30,726 nt of DNA from an uncultured Dictyoglomota bacterium (GCA_964654465.1 CAZZIO010000043.1:1-30726); one strand, 5' to 3'. Shown: positions 6,589 to 17,796, numbered from the stretch's first letter. Translations and numbers: made by a program. The notes: generated from the letters alone by a model not told the origin.

Positions 6589-8049
6589 ATGGGAAATGAA
6601 TGGAAAGGAAAACTTATTAAGATAGATGATTATAGATATATGATACCTGAGGATCATAAGCCTTTTATGAAGGTACCGGGGATTATATTTGCTGATGAAA
6701 AATTAATGGAAGATATCGTTAAAGACCAATCTCCAGAACAAGTAGCCAACGTTGCATCTCTACCTGGCATACTAAAATACTCTTTAGCTATGCCAGATAT
6801 CCATTGGGGATATGGATTTCCTATAGGTGGAGTAGCAGCTATGAAGAAAAAGGGAGGGGTTATTTCTCCAGGAGGTGTAGGATACGATATAAATTGCGGT
6901 GTAAGATTGATAAGAACTAATTTATCAAAAGAAGATGTTTTACCAAAGATAAGAGAGTTGGTAGATGAGCTTTTTGATAAGATACCAGCTGGTGTAGGCT
7001 CAGAAGGAGATCTGAGGGTAAAAGGTAAAGAACTTGATGAGGTACTTGAAAAAGGTGCTCAATGGGCTGTAAAACAGGGTTATGGATGGAAAGAAGATTT
7101 AGAACATATAGAAGAAAGAGGAAGACTAACATATGCAGATCCAGATAAGGTATCCAAAAAAGCAAAGGAAAGAGGAGAGTATCAATTAGGTACTTTGGGC
7201 TCAGGAAACCACTTCTTGGAAATTCAGGTAGTTAGCAGAGTTTTCGAGCCAGAAATAGCTGACAAGTTAGGAATCTTTCCAGATCAGATAGTAATTATGG
7301 TACATACAGGATCTCGTGGTCTTGGACACCAGGTAGCAGAAGATTATATCAGAGTAATGTCTAATGCCATGAGAAAATATGGCATTGAAGTACCTGATAA
7401 ACAACTTGCTTGTGCTCCCTTTGATTCTCCTGAGGGTCAAGATTATTTCTCAGCCATGTCTTGTGCAGCCAACTTTGCTTGGGCAAATAGACAAATGATA
7501 ACCCACTGGGTGAGAGAGGTATTTGAAAAAGTATTTAGGGAGGGGGCTGAATCCTTAGGAATGAGGCTTATTTATGATGTGGCCCACAATATTGCCAAAT
7601 TAGAGGAACACGATATTGATGGAAAAATAGAAGAGGTAATAGTACATAGAAAAGGAGCTACAAGAGCCTTTCCAGCAGGACATCCAGACCTTCCAGAAGA
7701 TTACAAGGATATAGGTCAGCCAGTGATAATACCCGGAGATATGGGAAGATCTTCTTTTCTTCTTATAGGTCTTCCTAAGGCAATGGAACTCTCCTTTGGA
7801 TCTACTTGCCACGGAGCAGGAAGAACCCAAAGCAGAAGTAAGCTTTTAAAAAGTGGCTTAAGAGCTTCGGATATTGAAAGGGAGCTACTTGAAAGAGGGA
7901 TTATAGTAAAAGCAGCATCTAAGGCTTCTATAGTAGAAGAGGCTTCAGAAGCTTACAAAAATGTAGTAGATGTGGTAAATGTAGTACATAACGCAGAAAT
8001 TTCAAAAAGAGTTGCTCAGATGAAACCATTAGCTGTAATTAAAGGATAG
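6589..8049 (+). CDS. rtcB: RNA-splicing/repair ligase RtcB (long, archaeal/eukaryote-like form)
   Basis: MPDIHWGYGFPIGGV, GYDINCG, LGSGNHFLE, HTGSRG, YDVAHN, HRKGATRA, STCHGAGR, EE...AYK motifs. Confidence 0.97.
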   Translation: MGNEWKGKLIKIDDYRYMIPEDHKPFMKVPGIIFADEKLMEDIVKDQSPEQVANVASLPGILKYSLAMPDIHWGYGFPIGGVAAMKKKGGVISPGGVGYDINCGVRLIRTNLSKEDVLPKIRELVDELFDKIPAGVGSEGDLRVKGKELDEVLEKGAQWAVKQGYGWKEDLEHIEERGRLTYADPDKVSKKAKERGEYQLGTLGSGNHFLEIQVVSRVFEPEIADKLGIFPDQIVIMVHTGSRGLGHQVAEDYIRVMSNAMRKYGIEVPDKQLACAPFDSPEGQDYFSAMSCAANFAWANRQMITHWVREVFEKVFREGAESLGMRLIYDVAHNIAKLEEHDIDGKIEEVIVHRKGATRAFPAGHPDLPEDYKDIGQPVIIPGDMGRSSFLLIGLPKAMELSFGSTCHGAGRTQSRSKLLKSGLRASDIERELLERGIIVKAASKASIVEEASEAYKNVVDVVNVVHNAEISKRVAQMKPLAVIKG

Positions 8050-8088
8050 AAAAAAGGGGAAGGACGTAAGCGCCCTTCCCCTTTAAAA
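8050..8088. terminator. Likely bidirectional terminator between rtcB and the beta-barrel gene
   Basis: AAAGGGGAAGG-ACGTAAGCGC-CCTTCCCCTTT hairpin between convergent stops; longer U-tract on the minus strand. Confidence 0.85.
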
Positions 8089-8096
8089 TAGTTCCC

Positions 8097-8972
8097 TCAA
8101 AAACTCATAGAAAGCCCTACTCTATGGTAAAATCCACCCAAGTTTAAAGAGTATAAAAGAGCATAATCAATTACTATATTATCCTTTTTAAAACCAAGAC
8201 CAAAAGTAGGAGAATCCACATTCCATCCTAATCTCACATATACGACTTTCCTAAACAAATATTCCCCACCAATCTGGAAACTTAAAGATGGAATACTAAC
8301 ATTTCCAGATACTGCTAAGTTTTCTGATTGATATGAAAGTCCAACCTTGATGTTTGGTGTTATTGGTTCATCATAAGATTCTGTTCCATCAGACCATGAC
8401 ACATTATTATAAAGATTATAAACTACAGCTCCAATTTTAACTTGAGGAGTAAGTTTAAATATTACTCCTAAATCTATACCAAAGCCTTCTGAATTATAAG
8501 GAGATGGTAAAACTGCCCACATTCTTTTTATATTCATTCCTACAGAAAGATTAGAAAACAAAACTTTACCTATAGAATAGGCTAACACATTCTCAGAATA
8601 GGGTACTCCTAATTCTTCATCAGGAGAAATTCTACTATAATATAATGCACTTGCCCACATTCCCTTATCAGGTACAGCAAAGGATATAATAGTACCTGTT
8701 ATGTTAGGTCCGCTAAAACCAAGACTTTCCGGAGTTAAACCTAAATAATTATAGGAGATAAAAAATTGAGAATTATAAAGTCTTGCTATTGATGCTGGAT
8801 TATATGTAATCCCATTAATATCTCCTTCTATTGCTATAAAAGCACCTCCCATACCCATAGCCCTTGGACTCCATGAAAGATAAGGTCCTTCAGAAAAACC
8901 CCCATAGGTTTGAGCATAAGATCCAGAGGATAAAATTGTTATAGCTAAAATAAGAAACACTATTTTTCGCAT
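8097..8972 (-). CDS. Outer-membrane beta-barrel protein, PorV/PorQ (FadL-like, UPF0164) family
   Basis: Signal peptide MRKIVFLILAITILSSGSYA; plug motif 'SPRAMGMGGAFIAIEGDINGITYNPASIA'; alternating amphipathic strands; C-terminal Phe (VGLSMSF). Start moved to ATG 8972 with AGGAGGAG RBS. Confidence 0.75.
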   Translation of the reverse strand: MRKIVFLILAITILSSGSYAQTYGGFSEGPYLSWSPRAMGMGGAFIAIEGDINGITYNPASIARLYNSQFFISYNYLGLTPESLGFSGPNITGTIISFAVPDKGMWASALYYSRISPDEELGVPYSENVLAYSIGKVLFSNLSVGMNIKRMWAVLPSPYNSEGFGIDLGVIFKLTPQVKIGAVVYNLYNNVSWSDGTESYDEPITPNIKVGLSYQSENLAVSGNVSIPSLSFQIGGEYLFRKVVYVRLGWNVDSPTFGLGFKKDNIVIDYALLYSLNLGGFYHRVGLSMSF

Positions 8973-8995
8973 TTTAACTCTCCTCCTAAAAATTA

Positions 8996-11900
8996 TCACT
9001 TAACTACAACAAATCCCTTAAATTTATATTTAATCGCCCCATTTGACTCTTTAATTGTAATCTTTACGAGATAATAACCATTAGGCACTAATCTACCTAA
9101 ATTGTCCTTACCATCCCATGTTACAGTATCTTGAGCTTGCACACTATTAAAAGTTCTACTATATATGGTCTTTACCAATGTACCGTTCATACTGTATATA
9201 TCTATTTTAACCTCTGATATATTTCCAAAAGAAGCCTGTACTTGGAAATCTATTCTAAGTAACCCTTTCTTAGGAGAAAAGATAGATGGCGTTACAATAA
9301 CATCTCCAGAAGCAGTTGAAGAAGCTTCTAAATTTAAGGTAAAAGTATAGGTATCATCTACAGAGTTACCAGTATTATCTGTAGCCCTTAAGATTACAGT
9401 ATAAATGCCTTTAGTCCATGTATAAGAAGTAGTATTTACAGTAAGAGTAGCTGTACGAGAATCTGAGGAAATCTGATATGTATATGTCCCAACTTCCATT
9501 CCATTAGGATCTCTAAGCTTTATGTATGTCTTATAAATGTTAGTATCAATTCCAGTAGTATTATCTTTTACTACCACTGATACTTGAGAGGGCGGTAATA
9601 CGAGTATAGCATTCTTTGTAGGATAGGTACTTTCTATATAAGGTTTACTCATGTCTAATGTAAAGGAAGTATAGGTGATAGTATAATTTCCTGCCATATC
9701 ATATAGAGTTATAGCCATATTATAAACTCCGTCTTGAGCCAAAATATCAGATGATATAGGTACTACAAGTAGGTTCTTATCAGATAAAGTAGGATCAAAA
9801 GCTAAAGGAAAATTACCTATGGGTGTAACTAAGTTTATTCCAGACTTTGTAATATCAATTCCTGTACCTGTATCTATATATTTTACTTCTATTTTTTCAA
9901 CTTTTGATACATTGCCAGTTGGCAAGACTGAAATTATAACGGGACGGCTCAAATCTATTGTAATTTTTGAGGTATTAAAGAAAGTATTCCCAAGAAGATC
10001 GGTAAGTCTTATAGTTAGATAATAATCTCCTTCTGTAAGATTATAGCCTGAAGGGATATTTAATATTAGAGTTGCATTATTAGGAGTAGTAGAGGTATAG
10101 GTATAAGTTCCAGCTATTTCAGGCCCTGCTATGATAGTACCAGATGCTGAGGAAATTTTTACAAAGGTTTTTACAGGAGATAAATCTATTCCGACACCAG
10201 CATCCCCAACTGATACTTGAATTTGAGTAAATGTATAGTTTAGGGTAGTAGAATTTAAAGAAGAATTTATAACATAAGGTGGGGTCGTATCTAATAAGAA
10301 GGTGGATGTGGTAAATGTAGAATTTCCAGCTTTATCTATTAAATAGATGCCCATATTATATATTCCATCAATCATATTTATAGATGAAGGTATATCAGCT
10401 ACAGCTAATATAGATGTGGTTTTATCTTTATTAAATAATATTTTTTGAGAATTTCCATTTGGAGTAAAGAGTTCAATATAAGAGCCTACAGGAGAATAAG
10501 GATAATTATCCCAAAGATTTAAACCAGATCCTTCATCCTTATAATTAACTCTTATCTCCGATGTCCCAATTATAGCCCCTTTAGGCTCTACATCTATAAA
10601 TTGGGGGGAAGAATTATCTATAATAAAACTTGAAGTTACCAAGCTTCCTTTATTTCCCTTTTTATCTATTGGTTCTACTTCTATAGTATAATATCCAGTT
10701 GTAAGAGCACTAGTAAATGTCCAATAAATTGTATCATGACCATTATGAGATTGAATTCCCCCTACATATCTTCCAATATTATCTCTTACCCTTATAGCAG
10801 ATTTTTCTAAATCTGGACCAATACCTCCTCCATCATCTAAAATAGCAAAAACACTGGATATATTACTCACTAAAGACCCCGAAGATGGATATATTGAGAG
10901 GACTTTAGGAGGAGTTATATCTTCTGGTACAACTATAACTTCTCCTAAAGTGATATTTGTTATTAAAGGTTTTAGGGGAACATTAATAACAGTATTACTG
11001 GTAGAATCTATGATAGTATATATTGGCTCTAAAATAACTTTATAATTTCCTGGAGGATTTCCCACAATCTTATAATACCAAGTAGTTAGATCTTCCGGTT
11101 TCTCTTTAACAAGCTCTAAATCCTTTTCACCATACCAATAAAATGTTGCAGGACTTGTTACATTCTCAAAAGCCATAGTTCTTACCACGTTGTTATTACC
11201 ATCAACAACAGATATTTTCACATTTGTCAAAGATGCTGTATAAGGCTTTATGTCAAAGCTTAGAGCTATACTACCTATGGTTATACCTTCCTGATCAAGA
11301 TAAAAAGATGGATCCCTGTTAAATTCATTCCCATAGGTGTCTGTAAAAGGTTTGGTATACGTAGCCTTATAAAATGGTTTATTCGGATCTAACATAGAAC
11401 AAAAAGGATTAGGTGTTCCTATAAGATTAGAAACTTCCACATCAGGAATATCTAAGATCAATTTACTAGATGCTGTATTAACATTTCCTGCATAATCAGC
11501 AGCAGTTATTGTATAAATAATTATTCCTTCCTTAGCCAAGGAACCACCAAAATAGCCATCCCATTCCAAATTATATGTACCAGGGACCGGACAAATTCTT
11601 CCATTCCAATCAAGTAATGTATAAGTTGCATTATTACTATCCATGAGAGTAACTGTAACTGTAGCATATTCACTTATATAAAATGATATATTGACCATGT
11701 CTCTAAAACCATCCCCATCAGGAGAAAATGGATTAGGAGACGCAGAGAGATTCTCAATAGATGGTTTTGTCCTGTCAGCTTTAACAGAAACAATAGGAGA
11801 AGTATATGTTGTCCCTGATACTTTAGTTGCTACAACATAACTATATAAAACGCCATCTGTGGTATTTGTATCAGTGTATACATTAGAAGTTACAGTAAAG

Positions 11901-12106
11901 TATGTATAAGATGGATATGGATTTCCATCACCTTCAATTCTATAAATTGTATAACTTGTAGCTCCAGAAACAGCATTCCATCTTAATTCGATACTTCCCC
12001 CAGGTAGGGGTTTTGGATAACCGGATTGCCAAGTAATAGTTTGAGCTAAAGTATAATCAATAATTAAAAATAAAAAAATTGTTAAAAATAAAACTTTTCT
12101 ATACAT
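8996..12106 (-). CDS. Large secreted/surface protein: signal peptide, FN3-like domain, two FlgD-like Ig domains, about five bacterial Ig repeats, C-terminal FlgD/T9SS-CTD-like domain
   Basis: Signal peptide; 'LRWNAVSGATSYTIYR' FN3; 'PNPFSPDGDG..D'; repeated 'D..PP/D..RP ... G.Y.....D..GN' units; C-terminus 'PSIFSP...VKIDIYSMNGTLVKTI...WDGKDNLGRLVPNGYYLVKI...KGFVVVK'; Ser/Thr-rich. Confidence 0.8.
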   Translation of the reverse strand: MYRKVLFLTIFLFLIIDYTLAQTITWQSGYPKPLPGGSIELRWNAVSGATSYTIYRIEGDGNPYPSYTYFTVTSNVYTDTNTTDGVLYSYVVATKVSGTTYTSPIVSVKADRTKPSIENLSASPNPFSPDGDGFRDMVNISFYISEYATVTVTLMDSNNATYTLLDWNGRICPVPGTYNLEWDGYFGGSLAKEGIIIYTITAADYAGNVNTASSKLILDIPDVEVSNLIGTPNPFCSMLDPNKPFYKATYTKPFTDTYGNEFNRDPSFYLDQEGITIGSIALSFDIKPYTASLTNVKISVVDGNNNVVRTMAFENVTSPATFYWYGEKDLELVKEKPEDLTTWYYKIVGNPPGNYKVILEPIYTIIDSTSNTVINVPLKPLITNITLGEVIVVPEDITPPKVLSIYPSSGSLVSNISSVFAILDDGGGIGPDLEKSAIRVRDNIGRYVGGIQSHNGHDTIYWTFTSALTTGYYTIEVEPIDKKGNKGSLVTSSFIIDNSSPQFIDVEPKGAIIGTSEIRVNYKDEGSGLNLWDNYPYSPVGSYIELFTPNGNSQKILFNKDKTTSILAVADIPSSINMIDGIYNMGIYLIDKAGNSTFTTSTFLLDTTPPYVINSSLNSTTLNYTFTQIQVSVGDAGVGIDLSPVKTFVKISSASGTIIAGPEIAGTYTYTSTTPNNATLILNIPSGYNLTEGDYYLTIRLTDLLGNTFFNTSKITIDLSRPVIISVLPTGNVSKVEKIEVKYIDTGTGIDITKSGINLVTPIGNFPLAFDPTLSDKNLLVVPISSDILAQDGVYNMAITLYDMAGNYTITYTSFTLDMSKPYIESTYPTKNAILVLPPSQVSVVVKDNTTGIDTNIYKTYIKLRDPNGMEVGTYTYQISSDSRTATLTVNTTSYTWTKGIYTVILRATDNTGNSVDDTYTFTLNLEASSTASGDVIVTPSIFSPKKGLLRIDFQVQASFGNISEVKIDIYSMNGTLVKTIYSRTFNSVQAQDTVTWDGKDNLGRLVPNGYYLVKITIKESNGAIKYKFKGFVVVK

Positions 12107-12149
12107 AAATCCCTCCCCTAATTATTCTCAATCTTAAGAATTTGTTGAT

Positions 12150-12226: not shown

Positions 12227-12278
12227 AAAAACAAGAGATTATAAGTTTTTTAAAAAATCTTTGTAAGAGGGGAGAGAA

Positions 12279-12866
12279 ATGGAAAATAAAAAAATCAGTG
12301 TGAAAGAATTCCTGGACGTTATTAAGGGAAGTCCTATTATTGCCGCTGTTAGAGAAGAGGAAAGACTTCCTCAAGCTCTTCAAAGTAAATCAAAGGTCTT
12401 ATTTTTGTTAAAAACAAATGTCCTAACTTTACCCAATATTGTACAAGAGATAAAAGCTCATAATAAATTAGTATTTATCCATTTAGATTTATTAGAGGGT
12501 TTGGCACAAGACAAATATGCTTTAAGATATTTGGGAGATGTGGTAGGAATAGATGGGGTTATTACCACAAGATCCAATTTAATACAGCAAGCAAAAGCAG
12601 AAGATTTGATAGCCATACAAAGATTCTTTGTACTTGATTCTTCCGCCTTAGCCACCGGTGTAAAGATCATGCAAACAGCAGAACCTGATCTTGTAGAAAT
12701 CCTTCCTGGAATCATCTTTATTCATTTAGGAGAAGAGCTAAAAAGTCAGATTCCATACCCATTAATTGCAGGAGGATTAATAAGAACTCCAGAAGAAGCA
12801 AAGGAAATTCTTGCAGCAGGAGCAACAGCTATATCTACAACTTCTTTCACTTTGTGGAATCTTTAG
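12279..12866 (+). CDS. glpP: Glycerol-3-phosphate-responsive antiterminator, GlpP family
   Basis: PIIAAVR, VFIHLDLLEGL..D, DGVITTR, IQRFFVLDS, VEILPG, IAGGLI, ISTTS..LW motifs. Confidence 0.93.
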   Translation: MENKKISVKEFLDVIKGSPIIAAVREEERLPQALQSKSKVLFLLKTNVLTLPNIVQEIKAHNKLVFIHLDLLEGLAQDKYALRYLGDVVGIDGVITTRSNLIQQAKAEDLIAIQRFFVLDSSALATGVKIMQTAEPDLVEILPGIIFIHLGEELKSQIPYPLIAGGLIRTPEEAKEILAAGATAISTTSFTLWNL

Positions 12867-13289: not shown

Positions 13290-15532
<2,243 letters not shown>

Positions 15533-15561
<29 letters not shown>

Positions 15562-17062
15562 ATTCTTTTTGAAATTCCTGAAATGTAGTATGAAGTTGAT
15601 AAATTATTTGATCTGATAATTCTAATTGCTGTCTTAGTAAAACCAATAGAGACGAAGCCTTAAGTTTTAGATAAGCAATATATTTAACTACCACATCCTT
15701 AACTTTTTCTACAGGATAAGAGTCCAGAAATCCACCATTAGCAAGATAAAAGGTTATAATTTGTTCTTCTATTGGCTGTACCTCATGAGCACCTTGTTTA
15801 AGAATTTCCTCAATTCTTTTGCCTCTTTCTATCTTTTTCTGAGTAGCCATATCAAGTTCTGTACCAAATTCAAGGAACATTGCATATTCCCTATATTGAG
15901 CAAGATCAAGTCTTAATCTTCCAGCAACTTGTCTCATTCCTCTTGGTTGAGCAGAACCACCTACCCTTGATACCGAAAGTCCCACATTTATGGCAGGACG
16001 AATACCTGAATTAAATAAAGATGTATCAAGATAGATTTGTCCATCAGTTATAGATATGAGATTTGTAGGAATATAAGTTGCAATTTCTCCTGCTAAGGTT
16101 TCTGCAATTGGTAAAGCAGTAAGAGCTCCTCCACCTAATCTTTTATTTAATTTGGCAGCTCTCTCTAAAAGATGAGCATGAAGATAGAAAATATCCCCAG
16201 GATAAGCCTCTCTTCCAGGTGTTCTTCTCAATAGTAATGCTATTTCTCTGTAAGTATTAGCATGTTTTGTAAGATCATCATAAACTACAAGTACCTTTTC
16301 CCCTTGATGCATAAAATACTCACCCATAGCACATCCTGCCATAGGAGCAATATATCTTAATGCGGGTGCTTCATCAGGAAAGGTTGCTATTACTATAGTA
16401 TGGGAAAGAGCATCATATTCTCTCAGAGTTTGCACAAGCCTTGCAATATTTGTCCTTTTTTGAGCAATAGCTACATAAATACAGATGGTGCCATAATTCT
16501 TTTGATTTATAATAGTATCAATAGCAATTGTAGTTTTTCCAGTCTGTCTATCCCCTAATATTAGCTCTCTTTGCCCATGTCCAATAGGAATTAAAGCATC
16601 TATCGTTCTTATACCTGTATACAAAGGCTCTTTTACAGGCTCTCTATCAAAAATACTTGGCGCTTCCCTATCCACAGGCATATATCTCTCAGGGAAAATA
16701 GGCCCACCATCATCTAATGGATCTCCAAGAGGATCTATTACTCTTCCCAAATATCCCCTACCAACTGGCACTTGTAATATTTTACCAGTGGAGTATACTA
16801 TATCTCCTTCTTTTACATATTCGTCTTTTCCAAAAAGAACTATTCCAACTGTATCTTCTTTCAAACTAAGTACAAGACCCTCAACCCCAGATTCAAAGAC
16901 TACCATCTCTCCTACAAAAGCTGAGTTCAAAAGCGTAGCCTGTACTACTCCGTCTCCCACACTTTTTACATAACCAATATTAGATATTCTTGGAGAAAAA
17001 TCATATTCTTTTAATTTTTCTTCAATTCTTTCTATAGGAAAGCGTAATATTTCCTCCCTCAT
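15533..17062 (-). CDS. atpA: F-type ATP synthase alpha subunit
   Basis: GQRELILGDRQTGKT, YDDLTKHA, PGREAYPGD, SITDGQI, GLSVSRVG. Confidence 0.98.
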
Positions 17063-17796
17063 ATATTCTCAACCTCTTTTAGGAATTCATAAATTTGTGA
17101 AAGATGATACTCTAAGGAATTATCAATAAGAAATTCTCCTATCAATAATTTAAAACCAAGACCCATATTAGGATCTACCTCAAAAGAAAGTTTATAACCT
17201 CCTGGAAGAATTGACCTCAATTTTTCTTCAATCTGAGCTTTCAATGAGGGTTTGATATTATCCGAAGAAATAAATTTAACTTCCTCCAAATTATTTGGTT
17301 TTACCTGAGAAATTACTAAATTCATACCATTAACAAATTTAATAATAAGGAGCTCTTCCGTACCTTCGGGTAAGAATCTTCTGAAGAATTCCTTTATAAT
17401 AATCTTGGATAGATCCAAAATCTCTTTTTTAGCTATCTCCAAGGCTCTTTTTCTTTCTGCCATCGATATTTCATGAGCTCTTATAATAATTCTCTCTGCT
17501 TCTTCTTCTGCCTTCTGGAGTATATCCCTCTTCATCTTCTCAGCAGTATCCACTGCTTCTTGGATAATTTTAGATGCCTCCTCTCTTGCACGAGAAAGCT
17601 GTTCTTCTCTTTGTTTTTTCAATTCTTCTGCCTCTTTTAATTTAGTCTCTGCCTCTAAAATTGCACTTTCTATCTTTTTTTTTCTTTCATCCATTATCCT
17701 AATGATAGAACCTAAAAGATATCTTTTAACTAACCAGGCAAGAGCAAGCAGGTTTACAATAGTAGATATTATAGTGAGAAGACTAAATGAAAACAT
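17059..17796 (-). CDS. atpF: ATP synthase b subunit with delta-like C-terminal extension (N-ATPase-type b)
   Basis: N-terminal TM helix, long coiled coil, then 'EVDPNMGLGFKLLIGEFLIDNSL', resembling the delta/OSCP C-terminal motif; 245 aa. Confidence 0.88.
   Translation of the reverse strand: MFSFSLLTIISTIVNLLALAWLVKRYLLGSIIRIMDERKKKIESAILEAETKLKEAEELKKQREEQLSRAREEASKIIQEAVDTAEKMKRDILQKAEEEAERIIIRAHEISMAERKRALEIAKKEILDLSKIIIKEFFRRFLPEGTEELLIIKFVNGMNLVISQVKPNNLEEVKFISSDNIKPSLKAQIEEKLRSILPGGYKLSFEVDPNMGLGFKLLIGEFLIDNSLEYHLSQIYEFLKEVENI

Follow-up and report, generated by a model that had tools for sequence, protein, structure and literature searches.

A putative cargo-anchor pair related to PorU-PorV and PorZ-PorQ in Dictyoglomota genomes with no detected type IX secretion core

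In the T9SS (type IX secretion system), PorU and PorV, and likewise PorZ and PorQ, form 1:1 surface-anchoring complexes (Glew 2017, PMC5562754), and a review (PMC10202324) describes the C-terminal domains (CTDs) of PorU and PorZ as retained and bound to their cognate PorV-like barrels. The seven-strand sandwich is the stated architecture of T9SS CTDs, and solved PorV binds a CTD by its extracellular loops, as given in PMC10994853. In the survey of Abby 2016 (PMC4793230), T9SS was found only in Bacteroidetes, in 60 of 97 genomes. The carrier barrels PorV, PorQ and PorP/SprF have so far been interpreted solely as helpers to SprA, the translocon, in Bacteroidota and their relatives of the Fibrobacteres-Chlorobi-Bacteroidetes (FCB) group. 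Here we analyze a DNA stretch of 30,726 nucleotides, hereafter the window, from an uncultured Dictyoglomota bacterium (GCA_964654465.1 CAZZIO010000043.1:1-30726), in which the gene for a large secreted protein, the putative cargo, is followed by that for an outer-membrane barrel. A preliminary description made from the sequence had taken this pair for a cargo/shuttle module, and the system behind it for one of export or surface anchoring that is related to T9SS but minimal or divergent. Our analysis suggests that the two genes probably encode a cargo and its cognate anchor, which are homologous to PorU-PorV and PorZ-PorQ and work without a T9SS translocon.

The last ~100 amino acids (aa) of the cargo had been proposed to follow the pattern of T9SS CTDs, which the family models bear out in part. 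The tail matched FlgD_ig with 36.1 bits (cut-off 27) and, taken alone, TIGR04183 with 26.1 bits (cut-off 23), a score that was 19.4 bits within the whole protein. The best NCBIfam match of the whole cargo was to PorU, whose model it matched at the C-terminal end, over positions 953-1089 of 1095, with E 1.3e-14, and the type B CTD model TIGR04131 gave 16.8-21.7 bits, below its cut-off of 35. An AlphaFold2 (AF2) model of the tail, with a predicted local distance difference test (pLDDT) score of 93.6, has seven strands, placing at the extreme C-terminus a sandwich like that of type A CTDs; the tail does not qualify as type B (PF13585/TIGR04131). A structural search independent of Foldseek against 48,161 Protein Data Bank (PDB) representatives returned the PorU CTD at the top (6za2_B residues 1059-1157; Z 11.4 over 96 aa, 24% identity), with the PorZ CTD at rank 6 (Z 10.5, 22% identity) and the mirolase CTD at Z 9.2, and this ranking is a tie headed by T9SS CTDs, with no clean separation. 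Upstream of the C-terminal FlgD_ig domain, Pfam matches comprise Big_13 in four stretches, DUF4625, Big_3_2 and a CopC-like immunoglobulin-like (Ig) domain; the Pfam scan detected no catalytic domain in this cargo.

The barrel had been described as FadL/PorV-like, and its matches agree with this. It hit the PorV_fam model NF033709 with E 2.3e-17 and 63.6 bits, and its paralogue on contig C61 (see below) matched the same model end to end with 84.6 bits; since this homology is clear and both scores nevertheless lie below the cut-off of 90, the two are divergent PorV/PorQ members at best. The PorV/PorQ equivalogs NF033710 and NF033711 gave 17.9 and 42 bits against cut-offs of 250 and 220, all PorQ, PorV2 and PorV equivalog matches were far below their cut-offs, and the PorP/SprF model TIGR03519 was not among the NCBIfam matches at E <= 1. 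The alignment-based AF2 model (pLDDT 82.5, predicted template modeling score (pTM) 0.81) shows 14 strands and an unstranded N-terminal hatch, in which N58 and P59 are invariant; the first strand does not begin before residue 69. Fold comparison, by Foldseek too, placed it in the FadL/PorV superfamily, with Z 29.9 for PorV (264 aa, root mean square deviation 2.9), 29.4 for FadL and 29.2 for CymD, well apart from OmpG at 17. Fold does not separate PorV from FadL; sequence does. With a profile of 25 sequences (seven non-Dictyoglomus, three of those annotated PorV/PorQ), the solved Flavobacterium johnsoniae PorV was found at E 7.3e-21 versus 2.8e-5 for TbuX, the best FadL-type chain, and a profile of Dictyoglomota sequences only still placed PorV first (9e-8 versus 0.017). 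The protein thereby combines a 14-strand barrel and hatch with a sequence nearer to PorV than to FadL transporters and, as shown below, a predicted affinity for the tail, which speaks against the ordinary FadL transporter that would have undone the preliminary description.

An exhaustive profile search collected 48,689 cluster representatives at E <= 1e-3, 5,678 of them at E <= 1e-30, and the atlas clusters nearest to the barrel came mostly from FCB-group phyla. All 32 of the 32 nearest non-Dictyoglomus relatives matched NF033709 at E <= 0.001 (191.6 bits for the one tabulated, cut-off 90); two clusters among the 10 nearest carry names, 'PorV/PorQ family protein [bacterium]' and 'hypothetical protein'. 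Judged by sequence, the PorV/PorQ family is very large, and the Dictyoglomota barrels are short and divergent representatives of it. Domain scans found no tetratricopeptide repeat (TPR) or other periplasmic domain in them. As a separate observation, 8 of 12 long (620-840 aa) environmental relatives carry a C-terminal TPR fusion, with one weak TPR_Slam match, and other long relatives join a PorV-like barrel to Ig/Fn3 domains; the periplasm-side TPR arm hints at a possible role in substrate handling.

The preliminary description had proposed a complex prediction of CTD and barrel, and this was carried out with the mature barrel and the tail, each as a 17-row alignment, alongside three controls. 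The pair scored 0.89 and the best of the three controls 0.00. Among solved complexes 116 of 157 attain that mark, and among mismatched pairs 2 of 215; these are rough counts, in a calibration that does not extend to user alignments. The runs agreed in at least 88% of contacts, and partner pLDDT was at least 89. Predicted contacts fall on barrel residues 79-91, 115-127, 153-161, 193-205 and 275-279 and on the mature N-terminus (22-32), and on the tail's side on residues 40-47, 76-84 and 96-105; all loop contacts lie on the long-loop face, and none of the short turns of the opposite face is involved. With both barrel termini in the periplasm, the contacted long loops would form the extracellular face, the one by which PorV takes a CTD (PMC10994853). 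Invariant tail residues were not clearly enriched at the predicted interface (6 of 14, with ~4 expected).

A search for further CTD proteins, also suggested beforehand, showed that FlgD_ig occurs in only two proteins genome-wide, the window cargo and a 5'-truncated open reading frame (ORF) on contig C61, each directly upstream of its own barrel. This paralogous cassette (C61:5063-8078) consists of a 5'-truncated M6 metalloprotease with the tail and, after it, a barrel of 289 aa. The contig breaks off within the cargo gene, ahead of the zinc motif of this genome's copy; full-length cargos of this type are ~1025 aa long, match the M6 model TIGR03296 with 172.6 bits (cut-off 110.8) and end in two FlgD_ig domains. 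The HExxH motif of the M6 domain is seen in the relatives' orthologues, where it is intact as HEMGH in 10 of 10, each with a signal peptide. No third gene is conserved in both cassettes. Elsewhere in the genome, two distant barrels (C40:173396-174625, 409 aa; C64:3779-4609, 276 aa) have neither a tail-bearing neighbor nor a Pfam match, and a ~90-aa C-terminal remnant of a C61-type barrel without an intact N-terminal part lies at C63:~2620-2893, on a 4.4-kb contig that also bears a transposase/integrase-like fragment (identified by eye). This remnant may be a decayed third cassette. Wza/SLBB-like polysaccharide-export ORFs, also recognized by eye, lie near the C61 cassette on the opposite strand.

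The host had been suspected to lie outside the Bacteroidota, and the barrel's relatives agree: a homologue from a Dictyoglomaceae metagenome-assembled genome (MAG) has 92% identity, another at 51% identity is named Dictyoglomus sp., and NCBI taxonomy treats Dictyoglomota as a separate phylum, not within the FCB group. According to PMC5167688, the D. turgidum genome encodes BamA, TamB, Skp and LpxA/C/D, with lipid A genes reported, which indicates a true outer membrane, and Dictyoglomus forms multicellular spheres enclosed by a common envelope (Brumm 2016, PMC5167688). Barrel homologues were present in all 11 Dictyoglomota genomes, the C61 type in 11 of 11 and the window type in 8 of 11; one of the three genomes without the latter is only 72% complete. 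Conservation of the pairing among relatives, on which the preliminary description had staked its reading, was found in 16 of 17 fetched Dictyoglomota loci, which carry an intact tail-bearing cargo gene and then the barrel gene: all 10 barrels of the C61 type, and of the window type 6 of 7, come immediately after an ORF of ~900-1050 aa (669 aa in one case) with the same tail. Both tail types have invariant residues in common, including the terminal lysine. In a midpoint-rooted FastTree phylogeny each barrel type was monophyletic (support 1.0) and the two together stood apart from 32 environmental relatives (0.987), which is consistent with a single acquisition and a later duplication of the cassette inside the phylum.

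The pairing extends to environmental contigs. A metagenome scan with a six-sequence alignment yielded 80 loci, the best of 560 confirmed, and in 56 of the 80 a same-strand ORF ends no more than 400 bases upstream of the barrel. With a threshold of E <= 0.01, FlgD_ig, Por_Secre_tail or a CHU_C-like domain terminates 31 of these 56 upstream ORFs, 19 of which score above a Pfam cut-off. We then used a custom tail hidden Markov model (HMM) trained on 18 upstream environmental ORFs and 17 Dictyoglomota tails, which matched 51 of 741 C-terminally complete environmental ORFs, all 51 at the extreme C-terminus. Matches were found in 38 of the 56 ORFs directly upstream of a barrel, of which the 18 training ORFs match by construction, versus 13 of 685 others, and at least 6 of those 13 lie directly downstream of a barrel. 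The environmental cargos are diverse, including GH16 with PKD, S8 subtilase, Kelch/Fn3 giants, CarboxypepD_reg repeats, CBM20/48 and NHL proteins.

No SprA or PorKLMN gene had been noted in the window, and none was detected genome-wide. The genome to which the window belongs, as contig C43, measures 1.91 Mb and has a completeness of 99.97%; in it GldK and GldM had no matches and the PorU model matched only the two tails, with no PorU protease domain detected. Searches that had no positive control gave no match for SprA (TIGR04189) in the same genome, none for SprA_N (PF14349), GldN or Peptidase_C25 in the 11 Dictyoglomota genomes, two of which are single-contig, and none above the cut-off for GldL in these 11 (one 17-bit match); the SprA, SprA_N, GldL, GldN and C25 models were equally silent in 14 control genomes, which have no T9SS. 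SprA is ~2400 aa long. The longest ORF of the genome encodes 1426 aa and is RpoC-like, and the large exported proteins otherwise comprise TamB, BamA, glycosidases, an M1 peptidase and the like. A single secretin-domain gene (C7:52120-52593, 160 bits) is a possible alternative outer-membrane route. As the SprA/Sov translocon, GldK/L/M/N (PorK/L/M/N) and the PorU C25 sortase were all undetected, the cassette is not T9SS by membership, though it would work in the manner of its attachment pairs; the undetected SprA-like translocon fits the word 'minimal' of the earlier proposal. In the open-access literature searched, Dictyoglomus and type IX secretion were linked only by incidental mentions, and no article describing a T9SS-like module in Dictyoglomus was found.

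Taken together, computation supports the homology of both parts, their one-to-one pairing and its conservation, a T9SS core that escaped detection, and a predicted interface; that the two proteins bind in the cell, that the cargo is exposed at the surface and that it retains its tail we infer. In the mechanism that we propose, the large protein would be exported by Sec, and the β-barrel assembly machinery (BAM) would insert the compact 14-strand PorV/PorQ-family barrel into the outer membrane. The tail sandwich would then dock non-covalently on the extracellular loops and mature N-terminus of the barrel and would stay uncleaved, because no PorU-type sortase was detected, and each barrel would hold a single cognate protein on the cell surface, the Ig-repeat adhesin-like protein of the window or the M6 metalloprotease of the paralogue. 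To cross the outer membrane, the cargo could use the barrel itself or the secretin, or it might not cross at all and be tethered in the periplasm. The anchoring role foreseen in the preliminary description is favored by the predicted binding, the second paired cassette and the conserved pairing, and none of the four results named there as refuting was obtained.

Several results weigh against this reading. In known systems the CTD reaches PorV via SprA, which was not detected here, so docking at the surface would need another export route. Two of the three tail models named in advance stayed below their cut-offs of 27 while FlgD_ig passed, Por_Secre_tail (PF18962) with 24.8 and 21.4 bits and CHU_C (PF13585) with 18-21 bits. 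Spo0M, RbmA and a GH2 domain come within 1 Z unit of the PorU CTD, as generic Ig-like sandwiches, and Foldseek ranked C5a peptidase and GbpA above PorZ (rank 3), again among generic Ig-like neighbors. A weakly tail-like segment inside the cargo, with similar segments in its orthologues, indicates that this type of domain is not exclusively a terminal signal. Neither barrel reaches the curated NF033709 cut-off, FadL, TodX and CymD tie with PorV by fold, and the PorV match of the Dictyoglomota-only profile rests mainly on the N-terminal 74 residues. The high complex score was obtained with uncalibrated user alignments and may in some measure reflect the predictor's familiarity with solved PorV-CTD complexes. 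Finally, at the one exceptional locus (C242:14000-21500, from an 86%-complete MAG of a close relative) both genes are truncated, leaving in syntenic position a cargo fragment of 87 aa and a barrel of 215 aa that is truncated at its N-terminus, through either a real deletion or an assembly collapse.

Were the barrel both anchor and exporter, it would recognize the C-terminal sandwich in a two-partner-like manner and move the cargo, perhaps during its own BAM-dependent assembly, by a logic that would resemble Slam/type XI or type V secretion. This would account for an extracellular interface in a genome with no SprA-sized gene and empty SprA, GldK/L/M/N and C25 searches, for the strict 1:1 match of tails to adjacent barrels with no conserved third gene in either cassette, and for the TPR arms and weak TPR_Slam match of the longer relatives, as expected of a substrate-receiving module. 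However, FadL/PorV-type 14-strand barrels are plugged by the hatch and to our knowledge none translocates proteins; the Dictyoglomota barrels have no TPR or periplasmic domain, and the secretin offers another exit, so that we regard this reading as rather unlikely. That the pair is a tether, either on the periplasmic side or by way of the barrel, with the cargo inside an outer envelope that can enclose several cells, is in our view quite improbable. Apart from the secretin no large-protein outer-membrane translocon was identified, and the Dictyoglomus spheres with their common envelope (PMC5167688) would suit such a tether, but the predicted contacts are only with long loops and none with the opposite short turns, and solved PorV takes its CTD on the extracellular side (PMC10994853).

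The two remaining readings concern what the genes are. The NPA-type hatch motif has a role in FadL. It is common to FadL and the window barrel, the fold scores of FadL, TodX and CymD equal that of PorV, and a protease paired with a channel would make metabolic sense, all of which would fit an ordinary uptake channel of the FadL type, with a small substrate that is hydrophobic or a peptide, adjacent to its cargo for metabolic reasons and not for binding. We nevertheless give this very little credence: the window cargo has no detected catalytic domain, the C-terminal sandwich is the sole feature common to the two unrelated cargos and the diverse environmental ones, sequence profiles favor PorV by many orders of magnitude, and the interface far outscored its controls. 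That a complete but highly divergent T9SS had escaped the family models seems equally far-fetched. The missing positive controls, with all 14 control genomes silent, would allow it; against it stand an almost complete genome whose longest ORF falls far short of SprA, two single-contig relatives with no matches, large exported proteins of other kinds, and the restriction of T9SS to Bacteroidetes in the Abby 2016 survey. We retain the cognate cargo-anchor pair as the probable reading.

The layout of the locus is summarized in Table 1. The ORF listing agrees with the two-gene unit described beforehand, with both ORFs co-directional. The barrel could start at a GTG at 8999 (8097..8999, 300 aa); the ATG at 8972 is likelier, leaves a short gap after the cargo gene and gives a protein beginning MRKIVF. 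Both N-termini are signal-peptide-like, as judged by eye from the sequence. Since the flanking ORFs (6589..8049 and 12279..12866) lie on the opposite strand, the pair is its own unit. The terminator expected at ~8050-8088 was found and is a strong one. For the promoter expected at ~12150, a site matching 9 of 12 hexamer positions exists there, but sigma-70-like sites in this AT-rich region are no commoner than chance (27 versus 22.4 +/- 4.8 in shuffles), and a promoter 5' of the cargo gene is plausible from the sequence. Upstream of the cassette, a run of minus-strand ORFs (13290-17796) resembles an F-type ATP synthase operon by its translations.

Table 1. Coordinates of the cassette features, counted from the first nucleotide of the window
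Feature	Position	Strand	Description
Promoter-like site	12238..12267	-	CTTACA-18-TATAAT, sigma-70-like, 10/12 matches
Promoter-like site 2	12121..12148	-	sigma-70-like, 9/12, weak consensus match
Cargo gene	8996..12106	-	ORF, 1036 aa; secreted Ig-repeat protein
Predicted Sec signal peptide of cargo, residues 1-22 (...TLAQ/T)	12041..12106	-	by eye; similar N-terminus in orthologues
Tail-like internal domain, cargo residues 116-210	11477..11761	-	tail HMM, domain i-E 0.4, weak
Ig-like repeat region, cargo residues ~400-930	9317..10909	-	Big_13, DUF4625, Big_3_2, CopC and PKD-like matches
C-terminal domain, cargo residues 932-1036, predicted docking domain	8999..9313	-	seven-strand beta-sandwich, 105 aa
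Barrel gene	8097..8972	-	291 aa from ATG; PorV/PorQ-family 14-strand outer-membrane barrel
N-terminal hatch segment, barrel residues 22-68	8769..8909	-	conserved R..GMG.A...NPAG motif
Intrinsic terminator	8053..8084	-	14-pair stem, 8 GC pairs, T-run; directly after barrel stop

A non-FCB phylum with two cognate pairs and no detectable translocon, motor or sortase suggests that CTD-barrel recognition is separable from the secretion machine, and raises the question whether the pair alone can place a ~1000-aa protein on the surface or, if not, what does. It is possible, if on balance doubtful, that a PorV-family barrel and a C-terminal sandwich make a self-sufficient export-and-anchoring unit without SprA or the GldLM motor. 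In that case the carrier-cargo pair of T9SS would be a two-partner system that stands by itself, is possibly older and was coupled to a powered translocon in Bacteroidota; Dictyoglomota would have kept the pair alone, and the environmental cassettes and barrel-TPR fusions would belong to the same unrecognized secretion pathway. The frequency of the cassette with diverse cargos in environmental contigs (38 of 56 loci) would make its function widespread. The pairs also suggest a way in which Dictyoglomus, with its unusual outer envelope, attaches an M6 protease and a large Ig-repeat protein to that envelope. We speculate that the paralogous cassette fixes the protease to the cell surface and, equally speculatively, that the Ig-repeat cargo is an envelope adhesin in these aggregate-forming bacteria. 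For D. turgidum, PMC5167688 mentions only one peptidase with an annotated signal sequence, which may or may not be the M6 orthologue, and many peptide transporters.

Compared with described systems, the barrel is like the FadL/TodX channels in its 14-strand fold with N-terminal hatch (Z 27-29) and its NPA-type motif, and unlike them in being nearer to PorV by profile and in having as its partner a protein domain that it is predicted to bind. In Slam/type XI secretion a 14-strand barrel encoded beside its cargo recognizes a C-terminal beta domain. The TPR arms of some barrel relatives, with their one weak TPR_Slam match, recall this arrangement; in contrast, the Dictyoglomota barrels gave no sign of a relationship to Slam by sequence or by fold, in analyses that were not aimed at Slam, and their cargos are non-lipoproteins by their signal peptides. 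Type B CTDs and PorP/SprF barrels, such as SprB-SprF, likewise place a dedicated barrel next to its cognate cargo, with genes that are usually clustered (as described in PMC10202324 and PMC10994853), whereas the window tail fails the type B models CHU_C (18-21 versus 27) and TIGR04131 (16.8 versus 35), TIGR03519 was not matched, and type B export needs the T9SS core. From Porphyromonas gingivalis T9SS the Dictyoglomota pairs differ in having no detected SprA/Sov, GldKLMN/PorKLMN or C25 sortase, in cargos that are adhesin-like or an M6 protease and not a sortase or lipopolysaccharide-delivery protein, and in barrels ~100 aa shorter than PorV, with short loops and a family score below the cut-off. 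They resemble the pairs PorU-PorV and PorZ-PorQ of P. gingivalis in what would be an uncleaved C-terminal sandwich on a 14-strand PorV/PorQ-family anchor, in a tail that both NCBIfam and structure match best to the CTDs of PorU and PorZ, and in the order of a CTD protein followed by a barrel, as in the consecutive locus tags PG0026 (PorU) and PG27 (PorV/LptO) given in the title of a cited work.

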